NCBI GenBank assembly: GCA_030606485.1
Contig: JAUWGH010000007.1
Span: 120,001 to 152,000, forward strand
DNA from: Promethearchaeota archaeon
GTDB taxonomy: Archaea; Asgardarchaeota; Lokiarchaeia; Sigyniarchaeales; SOKP01
DNA length: 32,000 bases
Direction: 5' to 3'
This document shows positions 11,608 through 20,484 of the stretch, in pieces (the first letter of the stretch is position 1; each line of letters starts with the position of its first letter). The notes beneath the pieces are model-generated. The model was given only the letters and a program-made list of their open reading frames with translations, made no database searches and was not told the DNA's origin. The position numbers were made by a program, and so were the translations under genes.

Positions 11608-12714
11608 TTGGAAGAAATGGAACAGCATAAGCAATTATCCATTGAAGTAGATAAAAATCTTATTAATAAAGTGTTTGAAAATGTAGAGATGCGCTATATT
11701 CTATTATATCTTTACATACTTCGAAATGATATGTTAAAAAATTTATCAGATGAATCTTGGCTCAATTCATTTAAACGATTAATGAATTTGGATGAAATTC
11801 TCAAAAGCGATTTGGAATTATATTCAAATAAAGAATTGACCGAAATTTTAATAGATTTAAGAATAATTAAAAATTTAAGATCTTTGAAAGAACTTGAAAA
11901 GAAAGAAGATGATTTTTTAATTAAAATTTTGGAACCAATAAGAATTGAAGAGAATAAAATAATTGTTCCAGAAAATACATTATTTCCAATTATCTCAAAA
12001 AACTTTACATTTTTAACAAAACGAAATTTTCACTATGCCATCTCAAGGTTAAAGGGTATTATGTGCGAAAATAGTGATGTAATTCATCCTTTTCTATTTG
12101 AAATTGGTAAGGAAAATTATTTATTAGCAGACGATCTGTATGAAATTTTAGATGATTTAGGAAATCCATATCAAACGATAAAGGTCGAAACCACAATTAG
12201 TGAATTTTATAACAGATTTAAAGAATTATTAGAAAAAGTCTCCAGTTTCATAGAACTATATGATCCTTTATTAAATAAAAAATCACATATCAGAATTATC
12301 AAAAAGGCAATAGACAATAATAAAGTCATTCTTGAATATATGCAAGAAAACGTAAAAAAATTGCCTGCTAAATTTGATCTGGAGGAAGTTACAGATAAAG
12401 AAAATGAAATTTTTAAAAAATGGCATTTAATACTTATAAATTTACTTAAAAAACGGAATAGATTAAATGAAATTGATGAAGAATTAAGTAAAATTAAAAA
12501 TTACTATTCTGGAAAGGGAAAAAAATATACCTATTTAGAATTTATTACTAAAATATCATACAATGAAGATAATATCTTAAACCAAATTAAAGATAAATTA
12601 ATAATATTAAGAGAAGAATTAGTAAATATCAAAAAAGAAGTATCTAAATTTGAAAAAAATGAAATAAAGCTGCTTAATTTAGATTATGAACGATATAGAA
12701 TTATAAATGAGTAA
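11608..12714 (+). CDS. Hypothetical protein with central winged-helix-like segment and C-terminal coiled coil
   Basis: ENTLFPIISKNF-LTKRNFHYAISRL...FLFEIGKENYLLA gives a helix-helix-wing pattern, followed by heptads. The start could be ATG 11617. Confidence 0.75.
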   Translation: MEEMEQHKQLSIEVDKNLINKVFENVEMRYILLYLYILRNDMLKNLSDESWLNSFKRLMNLDEILKSDLELYSNKELTEILIDLRIIKNLRSLKELEKKEDDFLIKILEPIRIEENKIIVPENTLFPIISKNFTFLTKRNFHYAISRLKGIMCENSDVIHPFLFEIGKENYLLADDLYEILDDLGNPYQTIKVETTISEFYNRFKELLEKVSSFIELYDPLLNKKSHIRIIKKAIDNNKVILEYMQENVKKLPAKFDLEEVTDKENEIFKKWHLILINLLKKRNRLNEIDEELSKIKNYYSGKGKKYTYLEFITKISYNEDNILNQIKDKLIILREELVNIKKEVSKFEKNEIKLLNLDYERYRIINE

Positions 12715-12730
12715 ATAAGAAAGGTGCTCG

Positions 12731-13702
12731 ATTATTAAATGCCCTGTTTGTAACGTTGAGATGGAACAACTCGTTCAAGAAATATTTCAATGTCCAAAGT
12801 GTAAAAAAATAATTAAAGGACGGATTAAAGAAATTGAAAAAAAGAAAGAAGTTGCTATTGGAAAAATTCAAGAGGGAGATTATTTTCATAACAATGCTAG
12901 TTTAAATAAGAAATATGAAATTTGTGAAAAAGGAATTACCATTTCTAAATCCCCAAATAGGTGGGTGGCAGCATTACTCTGTCATAGCTCCTATTTAAGC
13001 AGTTCTAAATATATTAGACTTAGTTGGTGGAAAAAAGAAATAAATACGCATGCAGGCTTTTTCAAAATAACTGAATCTGCAGTATTGAATAATTTAATCA
13101 AAACCTTAGAAAAAATAAATTATTCATTTGACGAATATTGGGGTAATTTTAAAGGATTTGAAAAAAAAAAAAAAGAAACAAAAGAAAAAGCAATTCAAAA
13201 TAAACGCTTAAAAATTCTAAAATATAGAATTCTCGAAAAAAAAATTTGCCCGAATTGTAATAAAAAATTAAAATTTACCAAAAGAAAAACACATTATGAA
13301 TGTGAACATTGTGGTGAGATCATCATCTTGGAATCTCATAATGAACCAATTTTTAATATTGATCCTAAAGATCTCCCATTAGAATTCTCCACAAATTTTC
13401 CTATCAACTTTTACCTCCCCATAGCTGGCATCACTATTAAATGGTTAATGGGAGAATGGAAATCTGTTGTTGTAATATATTCAAATGACAATCCCAATAG
13501 GAAATGGCTAAGATTTTATTCTTGGGAAAGAAATTTACAACAACTATTAAAATACGGATATTATGAAGCTGGTGATGGAGGACAACTATCTTGGACTACA
13601 AAAAAAGGAACAGGCTCACCAAATATTAACGATAAATCAGAAGTCCCTATTTTAATTGATGCTTTAAAAAAATTACAAAAAGAAATAGGTTGGGCTAAAT
13701 AA
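12731..13702 (+). CDS. Tandem (Zn-ribbon + PC4-like) repeat protein; probable ATT start (track start 12761)
   Basis: In-frame upstream IIKCPVCNVE completes the first Zn ribbon with CPKC. The second ribbon is CPNC...CEHC. Two internally similar GITI...W...K.(I/L)R...W...LI.(T/A)L domains follow the ribbons. Confidence 0.75.
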   Translation: MIKCPVCNVEMEQLVQEIFQCPKCKKIIKGRIKEIEKKKEVAIGKIQEGDYFHNNASLNKKYEICEKGITISKSPNRWVAALLCHSSYLSSSKYIRLSWWKKEINTHAGFFKITESAVLNNLIKTLEKINYSFDEYWGNFKGFEKKKKETKEKAIQNKRLKILKYRILEKKICPNCNKKLKFTKRKTHYECEHCGEIIILESHNEPIFNIDPKDLPLEFSTNFPINFYLPIAGITIKWLMGEWKSVVVIYSNDNPNRKWLRFYSWERNLQQLLKYGYYEAGDGGQLSWTTKKGTGSPNINDKSEVPILIDALKKLQKEIGWAK

Positions 13703-13740
13703 GATAAAATTTTATGCAAAAGATTAAGGTGATTAAATAA

Positions 13741-14883
13741 ATGAGTGGGATCGATAATCTTGAATGGGAAAAATTACTTACTGAATTCTCTAAAAATGTT
13801 GATAGATCTATTAAGAAACTAGAAGAAAGAGATATTGATAATATTCCTGGTGCTAAGCAAGCCTTGATCGAACGATTGAAAGTAATGAGAGATTATTTTC
13901 CACAAAATAATGGAGATCTCTTTATAAAATTAATTAATGAGAAAATTCAAAATGCTTTTTTCCCAAAAACTAAAGATCTGGCTGAAGCATTTGAGCTTAT
14001 CATAAAATCTCGCTCTCATGATCAAGATTTTATAATAAATGAATTAATTAACGGTTTTATATCATCAAGAAGTAAAACAATCGCTTTAAATGTTCAAGGA
14101 ACTATTATTGATAGATTGGTTGAGGCGTTTAGTAAAGGTCCCGATTTTCAAATTGTAGATCATCAATTTTACGCAATGTTTTCTGATCCGAATAAAGCAC
14201 GTAAATATGTAAAAGAGAGTTTGCAAGATCTTGTGGATTTATTCGGTTTAGAAGCAAAAGAATTAATTGTTGAAAAAGATAAAAGGAAAAGCGAGCGAAA
14301 AGTTTATACTTTTTACACGTTTCCCGAAAAAATATTAGAAATCTTAGAAGGTGAATATGTTGATACTGATGAAGTACTCGGAGAAAAAAGGGTTTCAGAA
14401 AAATTCGATAAAACAGTTTTCATATCTTTGTTTTTAGCCAATATCTCAGTTCACAGAGATAATTTAAAGAAAATAGGTGGGGTCTATACTGTAAACGGCA
14501 TCTGTAACATATTTAGTTTGATTTTTTTGATCTCACTTTTGCCCAAAGTGGATGTAATTGAGACCCATCCAATTCTTAGAGACCCTTCATACGATTCCGA
14601 TAGGATGAGCGTTATTCCCAAATCTTGGATGATGAAAGAGGTGTTGTTAGACTTATTGGAGCCGCTCATGAAGATTTTCGCCTATCGATTGGGTGGTGGA
14701 GAGTGGTTGAAATCAATTGACACAACAGAAGCTAGAAGAAAGATCCACAACCAAACTCGCTTTCTATTGAAGGATATAAACCGCTGGATTCTCGGGGAGT
14801 TGTGTCGTGTCGAAATTGATATATTCGTGAGTATAGGCTCAATATTCGCCGAAGTAATAGTAGATACTTCCAGTGAAGATTAA
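13741..14883 (+). CDS. Hypothetical protein, central region possibly MAGE/kite-like
   Basis: ATG after SD AAGGTGA. ESLQDLVDLFGLEAKEL and KTVFISLFLANI resemble MAGE/Nse3 WH-A and WH-B segments (inference). Confidence 0.75.
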   Translation: MSGIDNLEWEKLLTEFSKNVDRSIKKLEERDIDNIPGAKQALIERLKVMRDYFPQNNGDLFIKLINEKIQNAFFPKTKDLAEAFELIIKSRSHDQDFIINELINGFISSRSKTIALNVQGTIIDRLVEAFSKGPDFQIVDHQFYAMFSDPNKARKYVKESLQDLVDLFGLEAKELIVEKDKRKSERKVYTFYTFPEKILEILEGEYVDTDEVLGEKRVSEKFDKTVFISLFLANISVHRDNLKKIGGVYTVNGICNIFSLIFLISLLPKVDVIETHPILRDPSYDSDRMSVIPKSWMMKEVLLDLLEPLMKIFAYRLGGGEWLKSIDTTEARRKIHNQTRFLLKDINRWILGELCRVEIDIFVSIGSIFAEVIVDTSSED

Positions 14884-14908
14884 ATTAAGAATTTAGAGGA
14901 AGATTTTT

Positions 14909-16165
14909 ATGGTTAGAGAAAAATGGACAGACATTTTAGCAAGATACTTAACATATTTAAGTCATCTGATTCCAATCCTCAAAGAAACAAAAAAAACCGT
15001 CCAAGATATGAGTTTGGAAGTGATGATGACCGTAAAAATTTTTGATAAGATTAAAATGGAAGAAGAAAAAAGATTAGTGAAGAAAGTGAGGGCTTTATCC
15101 GAATTCTCGGCATATTATAGAGGAGAAATATTTGAATATATCAAAAATTTTATCTACAAATATTCTGAGGATTTAGAATCTATAGATATTAAAGATTATC
15201 TAATTGAATTTTTTGATGAATGCATAAATGCTTTAGAAATATTAACGAATATTACAAATCCCGATCAAGAAAAGTTAGATTCCACATATTTATATCTTCT
15301 TTACAAATATTTAGAAGATCGATTATTACCCATTGGTAAAAATTTTCAAGAAATCTATACAAAGTTGATTAAGACATCAGAAAATTGGTATGAATGTCAT
15401 AGGTATATGATGATCCCTCAGACATATTATCGAGAAACTGTGGATAACCCTGATTTTTTCGAAATTCCTGGTATTTCTCCAAAGTTATACCAAATAATTA
15501 ATAATATAACCTCTTTATACAACTTGGATCCTAATTATTATCCTTGTCCTGAAGATTCTAACAAAGAAATTCCAGTAGTCTTGATTAATGATGTTTTTGA
15601 AGCATTTATTGATAATATTGCTCATGAAGAGCAAGAAGCAATTGAAAAAATTTGTGAACGCTTAGGATTAAGAGTTCTAGATGGGATTTTTCTTGCTCCC
15701 AAGTATGATTTTATAGATGTGTTAATTAAACATGATTTCATAAGAGAGAATAAACAATCTGATGGCAAGATTAGGTTGATACCTCAATTCAGTAATGAGA
15801 CTCTAATTTTAAGTTATCTTACCTTCGTTTCTTTCCGTCGAGGTTTTTTATCTAAAGAATTAATTAATTGGATTTCTATGACATTTGCATTTATTATTTT
15901 TTCAACTATTTTAAAATCTCAATTAAGTGATCATAATATTTTCTACCCGATTTTTACTAGTTTAAAAACTCAAGAAAAAGTAATACCTTATATGATGAAA
16001 CTTCTATGCTTTAATAATTATTTAAAATTAGATAGGATGAAAATCCGGGATTCTGTCCAATACAGAAAAGAGATTTTTAATTTTGCAGGTTCTAGCATAG
16101 ATTGTATTAAACAACTAATTTTAGATTTAAGTGAATATTTAAATGAAATAATAAAAAAAAAATAA
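14909..16165 (+). CDS. Hypothetical helical protein, 418 aa
   Basis: ATG after SD GAGG; possible WH segment DFIDVLIKHDFIRENKQSDGKIRLIP. Confidence 0.8.
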   Translation: MVREKWTDILARYLTYLSHLIPILKETKKTVQDMSLEVMMTVKIFDKIKMEEEKRLVKKVRALSEFSAYYRGEIFEYIKNFIYKYSEDLESIDIKDYLIEFFDECINALEILTNITNPDQEKLDSTYLYLLYKYLEDRLLPIGKNFQEIYTKLIKTSENWYECHRYMMIPQTYYRETVDNPDFFEIPGISPKLYQIINNITSLYNLDPNYYPCPEDSNKEIPVVLINDVFEAFIDNIAHEEQEAIEKICERLGLRVLDGIFLAPKYDFIDVLIKHDFIRENKQSDGKIRLIPQFSNETLILSYLTFVSFRRGFLSKELINWISMTFAFIIFSTILKSQLSDHNIFYPIFTSLKTQEKVIPYMMKLLCFNNYLKLDRMKIRDSVQYRKEIFNFAGSSIDCIKQLILDLSEYLNEIIKKK

Positions 16166-16184
16166 AGAAGGGGTGTAAGAAAAA

Positions 16185-17261
16185 ATTACATATTCAGATG
16201 ATGAAATTAAAGAAAGGCTTGACAAGTATGGAACGGTTTATTTACCAAATGAAATATTAGAGAATGTTGATGATATATTGGGAAATGAGGTTCTAAAGGA
16301 AAGGCTTGAAGATTTTTTCAGTTCGCTAAAAAGATATAGTGAAGTTGTTGAAAAATTGAAAAAGACGAAATTAGTTCCAAATTTAACTGTCCTCCTATAT
16401 GGGCCACCTGGAACTGGAAAAACTTCATTAACTCGAGCATTTGCAAAGGAATTTGATATCCCATTGTGTGTAGTGGAGTCTGACAGATTAGTTTCTGCAC
16501 TATTAGGTGATACCGTTAAAAATATTAGAAAAGTAGTGGAATTATCAGCTCAGATTGCGGAAGAAAATGGAGCTTTTATATTATTTTTTGATGAAATTGA
16601 CGCGATTGCATCCGAAAGATCGAATATTCACGAAGTAGGCGAAATTAAAAGAGCTGTAATATCTTTCTTACAAATAATTGATAAAATAAATTACTTTGGA
16701 ACACCATTAGCAATTATAGGTGCTACTAACCATCAAGACCAATTAGATTCTGCAATATGGAGAAGATTCACTTTTCATTTGAAATTTGATTTTCCTTCAT
16801 TTCATCTCAGGAAAAAAATAATTGAGTCCTTTATTAATAAAATTAGTAGCGCAAAAATTGGAGTAGATGATGTAATTCTTGGTAGTTTAAACAAAGAGTA
16901 TGAGTTATTAAAAACTAAGGAAGAAAAATTAAAATCTTTAATGAGTAAAGAGAAATCCATACTAGATTCGAATGCATTATGGGATGACAAAAAAATTATC
17001 GAAAATAGAGGAATTTTATTTTCAACGCGTGGATACACAGGTGCAGATTTAGAGCGTGGAGTGAGAGTTGCTCTGTTTAAAGCATTAAAATCTGACATTT
17101 TAACTTATGAAAATTTCGTCCATTCCTTAGAATTAGTAGGAGGTACTAGAATCCATGTTGAACAACAATATTTTTTGAGTGCTTCTGAAAGAAAATATTC
17201 CGGGGATAAAAAAATATTAAGAATAAACCGTAATAATCTTGAAGGTCCTCGTGAAATTTAA
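16185..17261 (+). CDS. Single-domain AAA+ ATPase (classical AAA clade); probable ATT start (track start 16278)
   Basis: Walker A GPPGTGKT, Walker B ILFFDEID, SRH IIGATNHQDQLDSAIWRRF, YTGADLE. The N-linker ENVDDILG lies partly upstream of the track start. SD AGGGGTG is 9 nt before ATT 16185. Confidence 0.93.
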   Translation: MTYSDDEIKERLDKYGTVYLPNEILENVDDILGNEVLKERLEDFFSSLKRYSEVVEKLKKTKLVPNLTVLLYGPPGTGKTSLTRAFAKEFDIPLCVVESDRLVSALLGDTVKNIRKVVELSAQIAEENGAFILFFDEIDAIASERSNIHEVGEIKRAVISFLQIIDKINYFGTPLAIIGATNHQDQLDSAIWRRFTFHLKFDFPSFHLRKKIIESFINKISSAKIGVDDVILGSLNKEYELLKTKEEKLKSLMSKEKSILDSNALWDDKKIIENRGILFSTRGYTGADLERGVRVALFKALKSDILTYENFVHSLELVGGTRIHVEQQYFLSASERKYSGDKKILRINRNNLEGPREI

Positions 17262-17323
17262 TAATTAATATATCCAAAAATTTCCTGTTGATTATATAAA
17301 AATAATAATTAAAAAATCGAACG

Positions 17324-18391
17324 ATGGAATCAGAGAATATAATCTTTTCTGTAGAAAGAATAAAAGAATTAACTAATTCTATAGATACAATTCAAGGAAA
17401 ATTAAATTTAATTAATAAGTTATATCTCATTTATAAAGAAGCACTAAAAAATTTACTCAAAAAACCAAATCTAATGGAGAATGACAGAATAAAATTTTTT
17501 AATGACTTAGATAACTTATTAGAAGCAATCTATTCAAAATTATCCAAAAACTCTGAATTTAACTTAGAAAATTGGTTATTATTTAAAGATTTACTATTAT
17601 CTCAGCATATACTTACAATAAAAAACATTTTAACAGAAAAAAAATTTTCTCAAGAATCTCTAAAAAAAGTTGGTATTTCATTAATTAAAAACAAGAGAGT
17701 ATCATCTTTTTTAGAAAAAATAAGTTTTATTTTTTCACTCGATATTGATTTTTGGGAATTAATAGTTAATGCATTAAAAAATAATCCTGATTTTTTAAAA
17801 ACCATAAATAAAATAAAAAAATTTTGTCAAAATGAGATGGAACGACTATTAAATATTGAACTAAATAAAATTCCTAAAAACATTGACTATAAAATTATTA
17901 ATGAGTTTAAAAAAGAATTCAAAAAAAAAAATATTTCTTTTAAAGAATTCATGATAACTTCAAAATCCAGATTTCCTAAAAAGAAATTTGCCCGAGAAAA
18001 GATTACTTTAGAAACTAAAAAGAAAAAGAATGAATTTGATAGATTAAAAGAAAAACAAGATACACGATTCAAATCTTATGATAAATTATTTACTCTTTCT
18101 GAAGACGAATTTCAAAGATTAAAACGTAAAAAAAAAAGAAAAAAATTAGATTCTTCATCAAAATTAGAAAAAAAAGAGCATGCCTCTCCTGATAAAAAAA
18201 AGGAGATAGATAAAAAAAAAGAATCAACCCAAACTCCAAAACAAGATATATTTAGCAGAGAAATAAAAGAAAATATTGAAGATGACATCGATCCTATAGA
18301 AGTGATTAAAAAAAGAAAGCAAAAAAAGGAAGAAGAATTTGAAAAATATTTAAATAAAATTCAGAAAAAAACTAAAAGAGGTTCAGACTAA
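17324..18391 (+). CDS. Hypothetical protein: helical N-half, Lys/Glu-rich low-complexity C-half
   Basis: 355-aa ORF with poly-basic stretches such as KRKKKRKK. Confidence 0.75.
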   Translation: MESENIIFSVERIKELTNSIDTIQGKLNLINKLYLIYKEALKNLLKKPNLMENDRIKFFNDLDNLLEAIYSKLSKNSEFNLENWLLFKDLLLSQHILTIKNILTEKKFSQESLKKVGISLIKNKRVSSFLEKISFIFSLDIDFWELIVNALKNNPDFLKTINKIKKFCQNEMERLLNIELNKIPKNIDYKIINEFKKEFKKKNISFKEFMITSKSRFPKKKFAREKITLETKKKKNEFDRLKEKQDTRFKSYDKLFTLSEDEFQRLKRKKKRKKLDSSSKLEKKEHASPDKKKEIDKKKESTQTPKQDIFSREIKENIEDDIDPIEVIKKRKQKKEEEFEKYLNKIQKKTKRGSD

Positions 18392-19953
18392 TTAATTCTA
18401 ATTCATCTATAATAACAATTAAAGATTTTTCAGTGGAGATAAAAAATAAATTTAATATTATTCAAGGCAAATTTCTTTCTCAGGATTTAAATCAACTTCA
18501 ATTAGGAAATTATATCTCCCTTCTTGATGATATTCCAAAAATTAACTTAGAAAAGTTACAAATTTTATATAAAAAAAATTCAAAAGGACAGAAAAATCTG
18601 ATTGACAATATTAATTTTATTGAAATTATAGCAAAATATACTCAAATAACTCAAAAAGATATTGAATTTTTAGATAAATATCTCTCTTTTTTAGAAAGTT
18701 GTATTTCACTCTTAAAATTAAACCAGCTCAATCTTGAAAAGAAAAAATTAAAAACCGAACTAAAAATTGCCCAAGAAAGAAATAAATCAGCAGAAATTGC
18801 TGCTAAAATAACTCTATTAAATAAATTAAATGAATCGATTAATGAATATCATACTAGATTAAAACTTTTTGAAGAGGATTTTTTATCCATCAAAAATCAA
18901 AAAAAAATGCTTGAATTAAATCTCGAGAATTTAAAAAAAACACAAATTATATTGAAAAAAGAACAAAAGGACATTTTTAATCAAATTAATATTCTTACAC
19001 GAGAAGAAGAAAACCAGAGTGATAATCAAAATAAAAAAATTGAAACTTTAAGGAAAAATGCAAAAATTTTAAGAGATAAAATTAACAATCTCAAGCAAAA
19101 AATTGAAAATTCCCAATATAAATTAAATCAAAATATGCCAAAATTTAAAGAATTTGATAAAATTTATCATAACTTAAAAGAAAATCTTGAAATTGATAAA
19201 AAAAAAATGAAAAATCTTCAAATGGAATTAGAAGAAGTTATTGATTTAGATAAATTGGATGAAGAAACAGAATATGGTTTAAAAGAACTATCTTATATAA
19301 GGCCGATAAGCTTAATCAAATCAAGTATTAATAACATCACTAAAGAAATAAAAAAAATTGAAAGTTTCAATCATAAGTATTTTAAAAATGAAAATGATCT
19401 CTTAATAAAGGATTTAGAGCAGTTTAAATCCAATTTAGACGACTTTTTTTCGAAAGAGTTGAAAGAATTCGATATTAATGAGCTTAAAAGCAAAATAAAA
19501 TCTTTAAATAAATTAGGTATTTGGCTATATAAGTTCCAAAAATTACTAAATATTTTTTTGGAAACGATTAATTTAAAAATCTCTATTGATTTTTTTTTTA
19601 ATTTGACACCAAATTTTGCTAAAAATAGTCAGATTATTATAAATTTCAAACGTGTTAAGGAAGAAGCTGTCAAATATGATAATTTGACTACTCCTGAGAA
19701 GGTATTTTTTATTATATGTTTTTATTTAACCATTGAAAGCCTTAAAAATAAGAGAAACATCATTTTCACAAATCTTTCAATACCTAAGGATTATAACAAA
19801 AAAGGTTCTATTTTTAGAACTTTAACAAAAATTATGCCCGTTTTTAATGAAAGTCCAGATTTAAAGGAGAAATCATTAACTTTTCTAATTTCTGGATTTA
19901 AACTATCGAAAGATATCAAAAATGTTCAATTATATAACATAAATAATACTTAA
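18391..19953 (+). CDS. SMC-like coiled-coil protein with degenerate (inactive) ABC-ATPase head; probable ATT start (track start 18433)
   Basis: N-term IITIKDFSVEIKNKFNIIQG resembles the SMC head strands without a P-loop. A long coiled coil follows. C-term LTTPEKVFFIICFYLTI...IIFTNL aligns by eye to LSGGEK...ILDEI. Confidence 0.7.
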   Translation: MNSNSSIITIKDFSVEIKNKFNIIQGKFLSQDLNQLQLGNYISLLDDIPKINLEKLQILYKKNSKGQKNLIDNINFIEIIAKYTQITQKDIEFLDKYLSFLESCISLLKLNQLNLEKKKLKTELKIAQERNKSAEIAAKITLLNKLNESINEYHTRLKLFEEDFLSIKNQKKMLELNLENLKKTQIILKKEQKDIFNQINILTREEENQSDNQNKKIETLRKNAKILRDKINNLKQKIENSQYKLNQNMPKFKEFDKIYHNLKENLEIDKKKMKNLQMELEEVIDLDKLDEETEYGLKELSYIRPISLIKSSINNITKEIKKIESFNHKYFKNENDLLIKDLEQFKSNLDDFFSKELKEFDINELKSKIKSLNKLGIWLYKFQKLLNIFLETINLKISIDFFFNLTPNFAKNSQIIINFKRVKEEAVKYDNLTTPEKVFFIICFYLTIESLKNKRNIIFTNLSIPKDYNKKGSIFRTLTKIMPVFNESPDLKEKSLTFLISGFKLSKDIKNVQLYNINNT

Positions 19954-20484
19954 TTGAGAAAGAGAACAATGAATAATACAAATACAAACAAAAATGATAA
20001 TTTAGTGAAAAAAATTTCCAAAATTATTCTCATTAATGAAAAAAAAATGATAAGGGAAAGAGATCTTATTGAAATGTGCTCAAATCTAGAAAATTTTAAT
20101 GATATTATCAAAAAAGTACACAATAATCTAAAAAATATTGGATTTGAATTAGTGAAAACCTCGTACCTAGAAGAAAAATATTACATCTTGACAACTGAAG
20201 GTAAAGAAAAAGCCTTATCCCCTATTCATTATGGAATTCTCGCAATAATTATTGCTTTAAATAATGAAATAGGTGAAAATTTAAATTATTTCGAGTTAAA
20301 GAATATTCTAAAAGATGTATGGGAAAATGTTGAATATTTAATAAAAAATAATTATTTAGCTCAAATAAAGAGTAGAGATTATCATCTAATTAAAATTACT
20401 CCTATAGGTAAAGGTGTTTTAAAAAACATAATTTCTGAAATTAATTTAAAAAAAATTTTAGAACTTTTTGAAAAGACAAATTAA
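19954..20484 (+). CDS. Tandem winged-helix protein, kite (Nse3/MAGE/ScpB/MksE)-like
   Basis: FNDIIKKVHNNLKNIGFELVK...YYILT, then YGILAIIIAL and VEYLIKNNYL...IKITPIG. It abuts the SMC-like gene with 0 nt spacing. Confidence 0.65.
   Translation: MRKRTMNNTNTNKNDNLVKKISKIILINEKKMIRERDLIEMCSNLENFNDIIKKVHNNLKNIGFELVKTSYLEEKYYILTTEGKEKALSPIHYGILAIIIALNNEIGENLNYFELKNILKDVWENVEYLIKNNYLAQIKSRDYHLIKITPIGKGVLKNIISEINLKKILELFEKTN

Follow-up and report, generated by a model that had tools for sequence, protein, structure and literature searches.

The stretch of DNA analyzed here, referred to as the window (32,000 nucleotides of contig JAUWGH010000007.1 of a Promethearchaeota archaeon, numbered from its first letter), carries eight co-directional, tightly spaced genes at 11608-20484 on the forward strand. 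The seventh, gene 7, encodes a protein with the predicted architecture of an SMC/Rad50-type ATPase but with none of the ATP motifs. With appreciable room for doubt, gene 7 is probably the non-catalytic SMC-fold core of a complex encoded by its own operon, together with a kleisin-like neck binder (gene 6) and a kite-like subunit (gene 8). The window is AT-rich (approximately 22 to 34% G+C), homologues are labelled Promethearchaeota, and the neighboring genes are archaeal (eRF1 domains, an archaeal AdoMet synthetase, Lsm_C, and Elf1). The parts of gene 7, as placed by the open frame, family alignments, an AlphaFold2 (AF2) model, and Foldseek and ESM Atlas matches, are the following.

18391-19953, + strand: gene 7, putative ATPase-dead mini-SMC
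18391-18660, + strand: reduced N-terminal lobe (residues 1 to 90), with three short strands, the vestigial P-loop position, and a poorly modelled stretch
18463-18486, + strand: Walker A position QGKFLSQD (residues 25 to 32), of which only the Gly is nearly invariant in the family
18661-19002, + strand: ascending arm helix (residues 91 to 204, 114 residues), a helix in the AF2 model, with 13 columns at least 90% conserved
19003-19038, + strand: arm tip (residues 205 to 216), a short variable polar loop at the place of a hinge or zinc hook, with insertions in relatives
19039-19239, + strand: descending arm helix (residues 217 to 283; AF2 helix 211 to 283, 73 residues), with 7 columns at least 90% conserved
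19240-19395, + strand: joint-like break of the descending helix (residues 284 to 335), made of short helices and breaks and containing YIRPISLIK (residues 302 to 310, nucleotides 19294-19320)
19396-19569, + strand: neck helix into the C-lobe (residues 336 to 393), second half of the predicted gene 6 docking site
19570-19950, + strand: C-terminal ABC-type lobe (residues 394 to 520), the best-conserved part of gene 7
19684-19701, + strand: signature position LTTPEK in the C-lobe (residues 432 to 437)
19759-19776, + strand: Walker B strand IIFTNL in the C-lobe (residues 457 to 462), without Asp or Glu
19792-19809, + strand: D-loop position YNKKGS..R in the C-lobe
19882-19896, + strand: H-loop strand FLISG in the C-lobe, without His

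Translation of the frame at 18391-19953 gives 520 residues and no stop. An earlier note on this DNA had described a protein of about 520 amino acids without a hinge or CxxC hook, with QGKFLSQD, LTTPEK, and IIFTNL at the Walker A, signature, and Walker B positions and with the coil broken near YIRPISLIK. All of these strings are found as stated, the protein has two cysteines in total and no C..C motif, and the break at residues 284 to 335 of the AF2 model contains YIRPISLIK. The Walker A pattern GxxGxGK[ST] is not present in gene 7, its position reading QGKFLSQD (LI.GKFKK in the family), and neither a Walker B hhhhDE, a signature LSGGQ/E, nor an H-loop His is found in the protein, IIFTNL, LTTPEK, and FLISG standing there instead. 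At the arm tip there is no SMC hinge or Rad50 CxxC zinc hook; the place is taken by a polar loop of 6 to 12 residues that varies in length, and the AF2 turn between the arm helices is six residues long.

The product of gene 7 has 520 amino acids if counted from ATT 18391, which shares one base with the TAA of gene 6 (TAATT; region 18389-18435), and 506 if counted from GTG 18433, the sole canonical start and also the start of the mechanically called open reading frame (ORF). ATT 18391 is the likelier start to judge from the alignments, because a conserved N-terminal strand precedes GTG 18433: the family consensus I.IG...I.I.DRFTLI.GKFKK lies ahead of any canonical start and is conserved. The motif FTLI.GK was located in 52 related loci (set L015-L058), 39 of which have an open frame without ATG, GTG, or TTG at least 12 codons ahead of it, and an Ile codon usually lies near the frame start in loci without a canonical start. 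Habitual initiation at AUU or AUA, or coupled re-initiation, is suggested for the family.

The AF2 model of gene 7 was built on 15 homologues (mean predicted local distance difference test score [pLDDT], 68) and follows the SMC/Rad50 plan: a bundle of strands at the N terminus leads into an antiparallel arm and a joint, and an ABC lobe forms the C terminus. The coil between the lobes is antiparallel and intramolecular (helices 91 to 204 and 211 to 283, plus 337 to 393), and the joint-like region has the family consensus R-P..EIE.EI. The C-lobe has the topology strand-strand-helix-strand-helix-strand-strand, with pLDDT of approximately 70 to 84. Nearly all of the best 50 Foldseek rows against the PDB are chains of Rad50, Smc, Smc5-6, condensin, cohesin, MukB, JetC, LmuB, or RecN, with one dynein chain among them; the top match is 7zr1_C (E = 6e-7), followed by 5xei (E = 4.9e-6), which comprises an Smc head, its coiled coil, and the joint. 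The Rad50 C-lobe 1f2t_B fits gene 7 with a TM-score of 0.55 (root mean square deviation, 4.1 Å; 138 columns). A shape search of the ESM Atlas returned SMC_N/AAA_23 clusters over residues 1 to 520 (180 to 201 residues aligned) and an SbcC_Walker_B fragment (TM-score of 0.63 over 141 residues), and a language-model feature search of the Atlas returned DndD, AAA_23, AAA_15, DUF2326, and SMC_N clusters. Of the Atlas matches that carry a name, the majority are SMC/Rad50-type proteins. The Smc coiled-coil segment 5xg2_A matched with a Z of 12.9 over 228 residues, which is within the chance range of helical models, and a wide structural search (VIA-align) with the whole model gave mostly generic coiled coils. 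As modelled, the C-lobe and arm are SMC/Rad50-like beyond chance at the level of the fold. A canonical SMC N-lobe has approximately 160 to 170 residues; that of the gene 7 model has approximately 90, about half as many, and how it packs is uncertain. Of the split ABC head, for which the earlier note had asked for structure prediction, the C-lobe is firmly supported (TM-scores of 0.55 to 0.63), whereas the N-lobe is poorly modelled and a complete head is less certain.

An exhaustive HMMER search with gene 7 yielded 70 representative clusters (50% identity), 60 of them at E < 1e-10, with full-length members of 480 to 545 amino acids. The family alignment comprises 42 sequences that are 25 to 33% identical to gene 7 of the window and contains ten invariant and 38 nearly invariant columns. 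T433, T434, P435, E436, N461, S473, and R476 are invariant, and L432, K437, N469, K470, and G472 nearly so. Throughout the family, LI.GKFKK stands at the P-loop position, IIFSNL on the Walker B strand, and IIS on the H-loop strand. The ratio of nonsynonymous to synonymous substitution rates (dN/dS) against an 87%-identical relative is 0.33 for gene 7, the same for genes 6 and 8, and 0.13 to 0.23 for genes 1 to 5; comparison with a 97%-identical relative is uninformative (dS, 0.013). These rates indicate that gene 7 is under purifying selection, and the loss of motifs is uniform in the 42 members. The pseudo-ATPase scaffold envisaged in the earlier note gains support from the SMC/Rad50-like fold, the family-wide motif loss, and this selection. 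Conserved motifs also mark the arm (18661-19239), with DLLNKLNESI, EEDYL..KNQ, and KK..F.QIN.ITR before the tip and EKI..LQKKAKE after it. Such conservation is unusual for an SMC arm, and a surface for binding or dimerization may lie on the arm or at its tip.

The genes on either side of gene 7 encode its candidate partners.

17324-18391, + strand: gene 6 (355 amino acids), helical at the N terminus, followed by a middle domain and a basic tail of high charge
19954-20484, + strand: gene 8 (176 amino acids), a kite-like tandem winged helix plus a C-terminal helix (AF2 pLDDT, 82)

In 72 of 80 related loci, gene 6 adjoins gene 7, most of the exceptions lying at contig ends. Gene 6 is without detectable relatives outside the operon. 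It has no Pfam, PADLOC, NCBIfam, or PDB profile match, and the Atlas feature search gave no usable match. A complex prediction was made for three chains, gene 6 (residues 1 to 300), gene 8, and gene 7. Scored on gene 7, it gave an ipSAE of 0.66, compared with 0.00 for the best of three controls. The runs agree in at least 83% of contacts, and partner pLDDT is at least 77. The confident interface is with gene 6, because the score went to 0.00 when gene 6 was replaced and gene 8 was kept, and no confident interface between genes 7 and 8 was obtained in the three-chain prediction. Predicted contacts link gene 6 residues 4 to 98 with gene 7 residues 80 to 115, 336 to 383, and 399 to 405. The N-domains of kleisins bind the head-proximal coiled coil (neck) in structures of Smc-ScpA, cohesin, and Smc5/6, and the model supports kleisin-like binding of the gene 6 N-terminal helices to the gene 7 neck.

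Gene 8 begins one base past the gene 7 stop and is present in 79 of 80 loci. The top Foldseek rows for its model are MAGE-G1/Nse3, MAGE-A3, Nse3, ScpB, and Nse1 (E = 1.5e-4 to 1e-3), and the Atlas returned ScpB (TM-score of 0.52), Nse1 (0.51), and DUF4194/MksE (0.49). These matches are kites of all three archetypes named in bioRxiv 10.1101/2024.01.07.573240. Winged helices of ESCRT-II and MarR also match, and because of these matches gene 8 is credited with a kite fold in its model rather than with proven homology.

The remaining genes of the operon lie upstream.

11608-16165, + strand: genes 1 to 4 (368, 313, 380, and 418 amino acids), of no known family except for Zn ribbons in gene 2
16185-17261, + strand: gene 5, classic-clade AAA+ ATPase with GPPGTGKT intact (Pfam AAA, E = 3.7e-28; canonical TTG start at 16278)

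The eight genes are collinear in approximately 80 related loci, as far as the contigs reach. They are flanked by a divergent Elf1 gene upstream and by genes for Lsm_C, a zf-AN1 protein, and an M50 peptidase downstream, and they occupy the same chromosomal place, between Elf1 and Lsm_C, wherever both flanks are seen (56/80 and 74/80 loci). Gene 5 carries the only Walker A of the operon in a motif scan, and its nearest PDB sequences are VAT/p97/Cdc48. The best named family for gene 5 is IetA of PADLOC (IetAS defense system; E = 1.2e-59, 200 bits), with scores against the Cdc48, PAN, and CdvC models of approximately 85 to 98 bits, far below the IetA score. Gene 5 is under the cut-off of the NCBIfam model IteA (184 versus 510 bits), and no IetS-like protease is present. 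In PADLOC, genes 1 to 4 and 6 to 8 are unmatched except for a chance match of the Zn ribbons, and gene 5 alone matches IetA. A defense-island reading of genes 6 to 8 is ruled out by the lack of a PADLOC match and by the fixed chromosomal place between Elf1 and Lsm_C. Two rates of evolution are seen within the operon: between the window and most relatives in the set L015-L051, genes 2 to 5 are 51 to 69% identical and gene 1 is 45 to 51% identical, compared with approximately 30% for genes 6 and 7 and approximately 45% for gene 8. A figure of 55 to 65% for genes 2 to 5 in related loci likewise makes them better conserved than genes 6 to 8.

One genome per species was scanned, giving 85 gene 7 loci. 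In a GTDB-based sample of 300 genomes of the phylum, including 68 of the window's family, a hidden Markov model (HMM) of the gene 7 family matches 64 of the 68 and 0 of the approximately 230 others. Gene 3, which is much better conserved, matches the same 64 genomes and six of seven genomes of a sister family in the same order, and none elsewhere in the sample. Sister-family loci contain genes 1 to 5, a shorter gene 6, an ORF of 552 to 566 amino acids in the gene 7 slot, and gene 8; the family HMM finds this ORF (E = 1e-10 to 1e-20) only when the database searched is small. These orthologues are also without a P-loop (IIQGENSKK, IIQGSSEKD, and FLQGNYDIN), and their signature position reads LPTEEK, LLPEEK, or LKRVEK rather than LTTPEK. 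Because the sister-family orthologues are also motif-less, the comparison places the loss of the ATPase before the split of the two families. Within this sample, the system is confined to one order. Operon-bearing records L016, L020, L024, L032, L075, and L087 have labels that include Hodarchaeota, Hermodarchaeota, Thorarchaeota, and Odinarchaeota, and L080 is labelled Nanopelagicaceae bacterium; these out-of-order labels, or the bins, are probably wrong, because the GTDB-based sample has the genes in one order only. DNA of the locus is present in cold-seep and marine-sediment metagenomes from approximately ten studies, and there is no RNA among the 24 public runs listed as carrying the locus.

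A second arrangement of related genes, which is new here, places relatives of genes 3, 4, 5, and 8 around a full-length intact SMC. The complete sister-family genome G210 is without the standard gene 3 and has a 28%-identical relative inside this other eight-gene cluster.

L107:1827-13137: sister operon of G210, eight co-directional genes
L110:524-11737: second copy of the sister operon, the whole cluster 54% identical to the first, adjoining Elf1

The sister operon also occurs in GCA_030612265.1/ERZ4220366 (loci L110 and L111). In G210, the order is a 399-amino-acid protein, a gene 3-like gene, a gene 4-like gene, an AAA+ gene, the SMC, proteins of 323 and 322 amino acids, and a 191-amino-acid ORF. 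Like the window operon, it thus has eight co-directional genes and, in L110, Elf1 nearby, with relatives of gene 3 (24 to 28% identity), gene 4 (25%), and gene 5 (the AAA+, 37%). Unlike the window operon, it has an intact SMC followed by two genes of approximately 320 amino acids and contains no gene 2, a 45%-identical gene 2 lying just outside on the other strand in G210. The SMC (1,057 amino acids in G210 and 1,057 to 1,071 across copies) keeps GKNGSGKS, SSGQK, and ITAIDEFD and a central globular region, and its Pfam matches are AAA_21/AAA_23/AAA_29. The 322-amino-acid protein has a weak Nse4_C match (E = 0.0014), and the 191-amino-acid ORF (176 amino acids from its first Met) resembles gene 8 (hhalign P = 1.8e-4, 154 columns). 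The sister operon is rare, with one of 301 sampled genomes and two protein clusters in a large protein collection. It shows that the slot of gene 7 can be filled by a true SMC, with kleisin-like and kite-like genes and an AAA+. Because the AAA+ is present beside an active SMC, its association with the SMC slot predates the loss of the ATPase, and the AAA+ was not recruited to replace a dead motor.

A search for active SMC paralogues, as the earlier note had proposed, found them elsewhere in the window's genome, which has three intact full-length SMCs (1,150 to 1,490 residues) and Rad50.

C2:361965-368407, C10:788375-792545, C8:380774-386743, and C10:802796-809149: four genes, for the three intact full-length SMCs and Rad50

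One SMC gene is accompanied by ScpA-like and ScpB genes, another has an ScpB-like neighbor, and the remaining one stands between orphan genes. Rad50 is part of an Mre11-HerA cluster, in which an unassigned ORF of 406 amino acids occupies the expected place of NurA. The genome also encodes further short SMC-like proteins, of 629 and 663 amino acids. The sister-operon SMC is most like the third SMC of this genome, on contig C8 (22% over 1,142 residues).

Sequence-level searches with gene 7 reached the coil at most. Pfam gave no match for gene 7, and 42 family members are without SMC_N, AAA_23, or other matches at E of 1 or less; a scan of the whole genome with PF02463 did not match gene 7. A gene 7 profile against PDB sequences gave coiled-coil matches only, and NCBIfam SMC models match the coil only, at E = 6e-5 and far under the cut-off. 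An hhalign comparison of the gene 7 family with the N- and C-lobes of the genome's own SMCs was not significant (P of approximately 0.1); in its non-significant register, LTTPEK is paired with LSGGEK, IIFSNL with the Walker B strand, and what is left of the GK with the P-loop.

The fold of gene 7, the loss of motifs throughout its family, purifying selection, conservation of the operon, and the kite fold of gene 8 are the observations behind the reading of gene 7 as the passive core of an operon-encoded complex. Gene 7 would be a shrunken SMC-type derivative that has kept the head lobes, the antiparallel arm, and the joint and has lost the hinge or hook. Presumably unable to bind or hydrolyze ATP, it would serve as the structural core of its own operon's complex, with the N-terminal helices of gene 6 packing on its neck as a kleisin N-domain does on an SMC and the kite-like tandem winged helix of gene 8 belonging to the same module. 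The complex would need an outside source of energy, the obvious candidate being the intact AAA+ encoded by gene 5. The complex may act on DNA or chromatin, and the AAA+ may act on the complex.

Several observations count against this reading. Genes 6, 7, and 8 show no sequence homology to any SMC, kleisin, or kite family in Pfam (searched with the single proteins and with all members of the alignments), PDB profiles (coiled-coil noise only), or hhalign, nor do PADLOC and NCBIfam place them in a family, and their link to SMC complexes comes from predicted structures. In those structures, the N-lobe strands of gene 7 have pLDDT of 50 to 60, and residues 30 to 94 are below 50. No kleisin-type C-terminal winged helix is recognizable in gene 6, whose tail is charged and helical-looking. 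Of 80 solved complexes, 58 came up to the mark for the complex score, as did 2 of the 110 mismatched pairs; these counts are rough here, custom alignments and three chains being unlike the tool's calibration. The score of 0.66 may itself reflect remembered SMC-kleisin complexes; even so, the pair of genes 6 and 7 would look to the predictor like an SMC-kleisin pair. The gene order of the sister operon differs (SMC, two genes of approximately 320 amino acids, kite), gene 6 does not match either of the two proteins in hhalign (P = 0.19 to 0.83), and descent of gene 7 from the sister-operon SMC is not shown, because hhalign between them aligned only the coiled coil (P = 0.0026). Finally, G071, G246, G264, and G270, all of the window's family and two of them 99 to 100% complete, are without both gene 7 and gene 3; the system is therefore dispensable, and some lineages seem to have lost the entire operon in one piece.

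Among the alternatives, it is rather unlikely that all eight genes form one machine with the gene 5 AAA+ as its motor, and equally doubtful that an AAA+ hexamer would remodel or load a passive clamp, for instance through a pull on the charged gene 6 tail. The strict collinearity of the eight genes between conserved flanks, the status of gene 5 as sole ATPase of the operon, and the sister operon, in which an active SMC is accompanied by an AAA+ and by relatives of genes 3 and 4, are in keeping with such a machine. However, co-transcription does not show physical assembly, and an AAA+ that is present where the SMC keeps its own ATPase is no replacement motor. Slightly more doubtful again is an evolutionary extension of this idea, in which genes 6 to 8 would be the remains of an SMC-kleisin-kite complex that lost its ATPase after coupling to an AAA+ unfoldase and four orphan subunits, the eight proteins being one chromosome machine with a foreign motor and the sister operon a surviving intermediate. 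Improbable, at a clearly lower level, is a role of gene 7 as inactive partner or inhibitor of a canonical SMC or Rad50 head, either in an asymmetric ABC dimer or as a regulator like SMCL-1; nor is it any more probable that gene 7 would bind an active head encoded at another locus through the signature-like and D-loop-like surfaces that it retains. The signature and D-loop are among the places at which ABC heads touch across the dimer, and the most invariant residues of gene 7 (LTTPEK and YNK.GS..R) lie there. Three intact SMCs and Rad50 are available in the genome, and Caenorhabditis elegans SMCL-1, which lacks a hinge, coils, and hydrolysis residues and binds condensin SMCs, provides a precedent (PMC5373644). 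Yet gene 7 never adjoins an active SMC in approximately 80 loci and nearly always stands beside its own kite-like and neck-binding genes, its arm of approximately 110 residues is about one-third the length of an SMC arm, so that the arms could not zip, two of the canonical SMCs have ScpA/ScpB-type neighbors of their own, and the signature position differs between the two families. The suggestion in the earlier note of an inactive partner for an active SMC encoded elsewhere accordingly finds no support in a gene that keeps its own kite-like and predicted neck-binding partners, and its bearing on the origin of eukaryotic SMC heterodimers is weak, the gene 7 family having been found in one order of the phylum sample only.

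A little more improbable still is an origin of gene 7 outside the SMC superfamily, as a coiled-coil protein (a cytoskeletal or tethering element, for instance) with an ABC-like lobe produced by convergence or by bias of the predictor. The absence of significant sequence or profile similarity to SMC or Rad50 heads, the low confidence of the N-lobe, and whole-chain TM-scores of 0.13 to 0.32 would fit such an origin. It is at odds with the C-lobe, which has TM-scores of 0.55 to 0.63 to Rad50/SbcC over approximately 140 residues and top matches nearly all from one superfamily, with the canonical order of elements (signature position, helix, hydrophobic strand, D-loop position, H-loop strand), with the kite-like neighbor, and with the true SMC in the equivalent slot of the sister operon. 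That gene 7 is a decaying pseudogene has next to no probability. Every catalytic motif is gone, and genes 6 to 8 evolve faster than genes 1 to 5. The frame is nevertheless intact in most of the matches listed across the 64 genomes (one-fifth of the listed matches have one to four stop codons or are contig-end fragments), the conserved columns persist at 25 to 33% identity with a dN/dS of 0.33, and sister-family orthologues are kept; the conservation data (alignment, dN/dS, and presence in 64 of 68 genomes) rule this reading out.

As the putative core of its own complex, gene 7 resembles the SMC-kleisin-kite complexes (Smc-ScpAB, MukBEF, and Smc5/6 with Nse1-Nse3-Nse4) in the head-arm-joint plan of its predicted fold, in the adjacent tandem winged helix resembling MAGE/Nse3, Nse1, and ScpB, and in the predicted placing of the gene 6 N-terminal helices on the head-proximal coil. 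It differs from them in lacking the Walker A, the Walker B acid, LSGGQ, the H-loop His, and the hinge, in an arm of approximately 110 residues compared with approximately 350, and in a halved N-lobe. Gene 6 also differs in having no recognizable kleisin C-terminal winged helix, genes 6 to 8 go undetected by SMC_N, ScpA, ScpB, MAGE, and Nse4 profiles, and the module sits in an eight-gene operon with an AAA+ and four orphan proteins. RecN, Rad50/SbcC, and a hinge-less but ATPase-bearing actinobacterial SMC clade (PMC12153180) are likewise coiled-coil ABC-type proteins without an SMC hinge, and Rad50 chains are among the best fold matches of gene 7. Unlike gene 7, these proteins have retained the ATPase motifs and have no kite partners, and Rad50 dimerizes via a CxxC zinc hook. 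SMCL-1 (PMC5373644) has no coils and no dedicated kite or kleisin-like partner and binds canonical condensin SMCs, whereas gene 7 keeps an arm and its own partners. Anti-phage SMC-like systems (Lamassu LmuB, Wadjet JetC, and ABC-3C) also differ, as genes 6 to 8 have no PADLOC match and their context is not patchy. Archaeal SMC5/6-related operons (bioRxiv 10.1101/2024.01.07.573240; PMC8665677) and archaea-specific SMC-related proteins (PMC9389158) have been described; no account of this operon, of a motif-less archaeal SMC, or of an AAA+ beside an SMC operon was found in the open-access literature.

The restriction of gene 7 to one order makes it look like a lineage-specific derivative rather than an ancestor, a derived oddity and not a forerunner of eukaryotic SMC heterodimers. 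The prevailing view is that SMC complexes work only through ATP-driven head engagement. In the gene 7 family, more than 60 sequence clusters keep the SMC architecture and partner types while every ATP motif is gone, and gene 7 would be either a natural passive SMC clamp or a clamp driven by a foreign motor. The sister operon with its active SMC provides a natural comparison pair, and the host group (Lokiarchaeia-type Asgard archaea) includes cultured relatives of the eukaryotic ancestor, making the system biochemically testable. In either case, gene 7 would tell which parts of the SMC architecture matter without the ATPase cycle.

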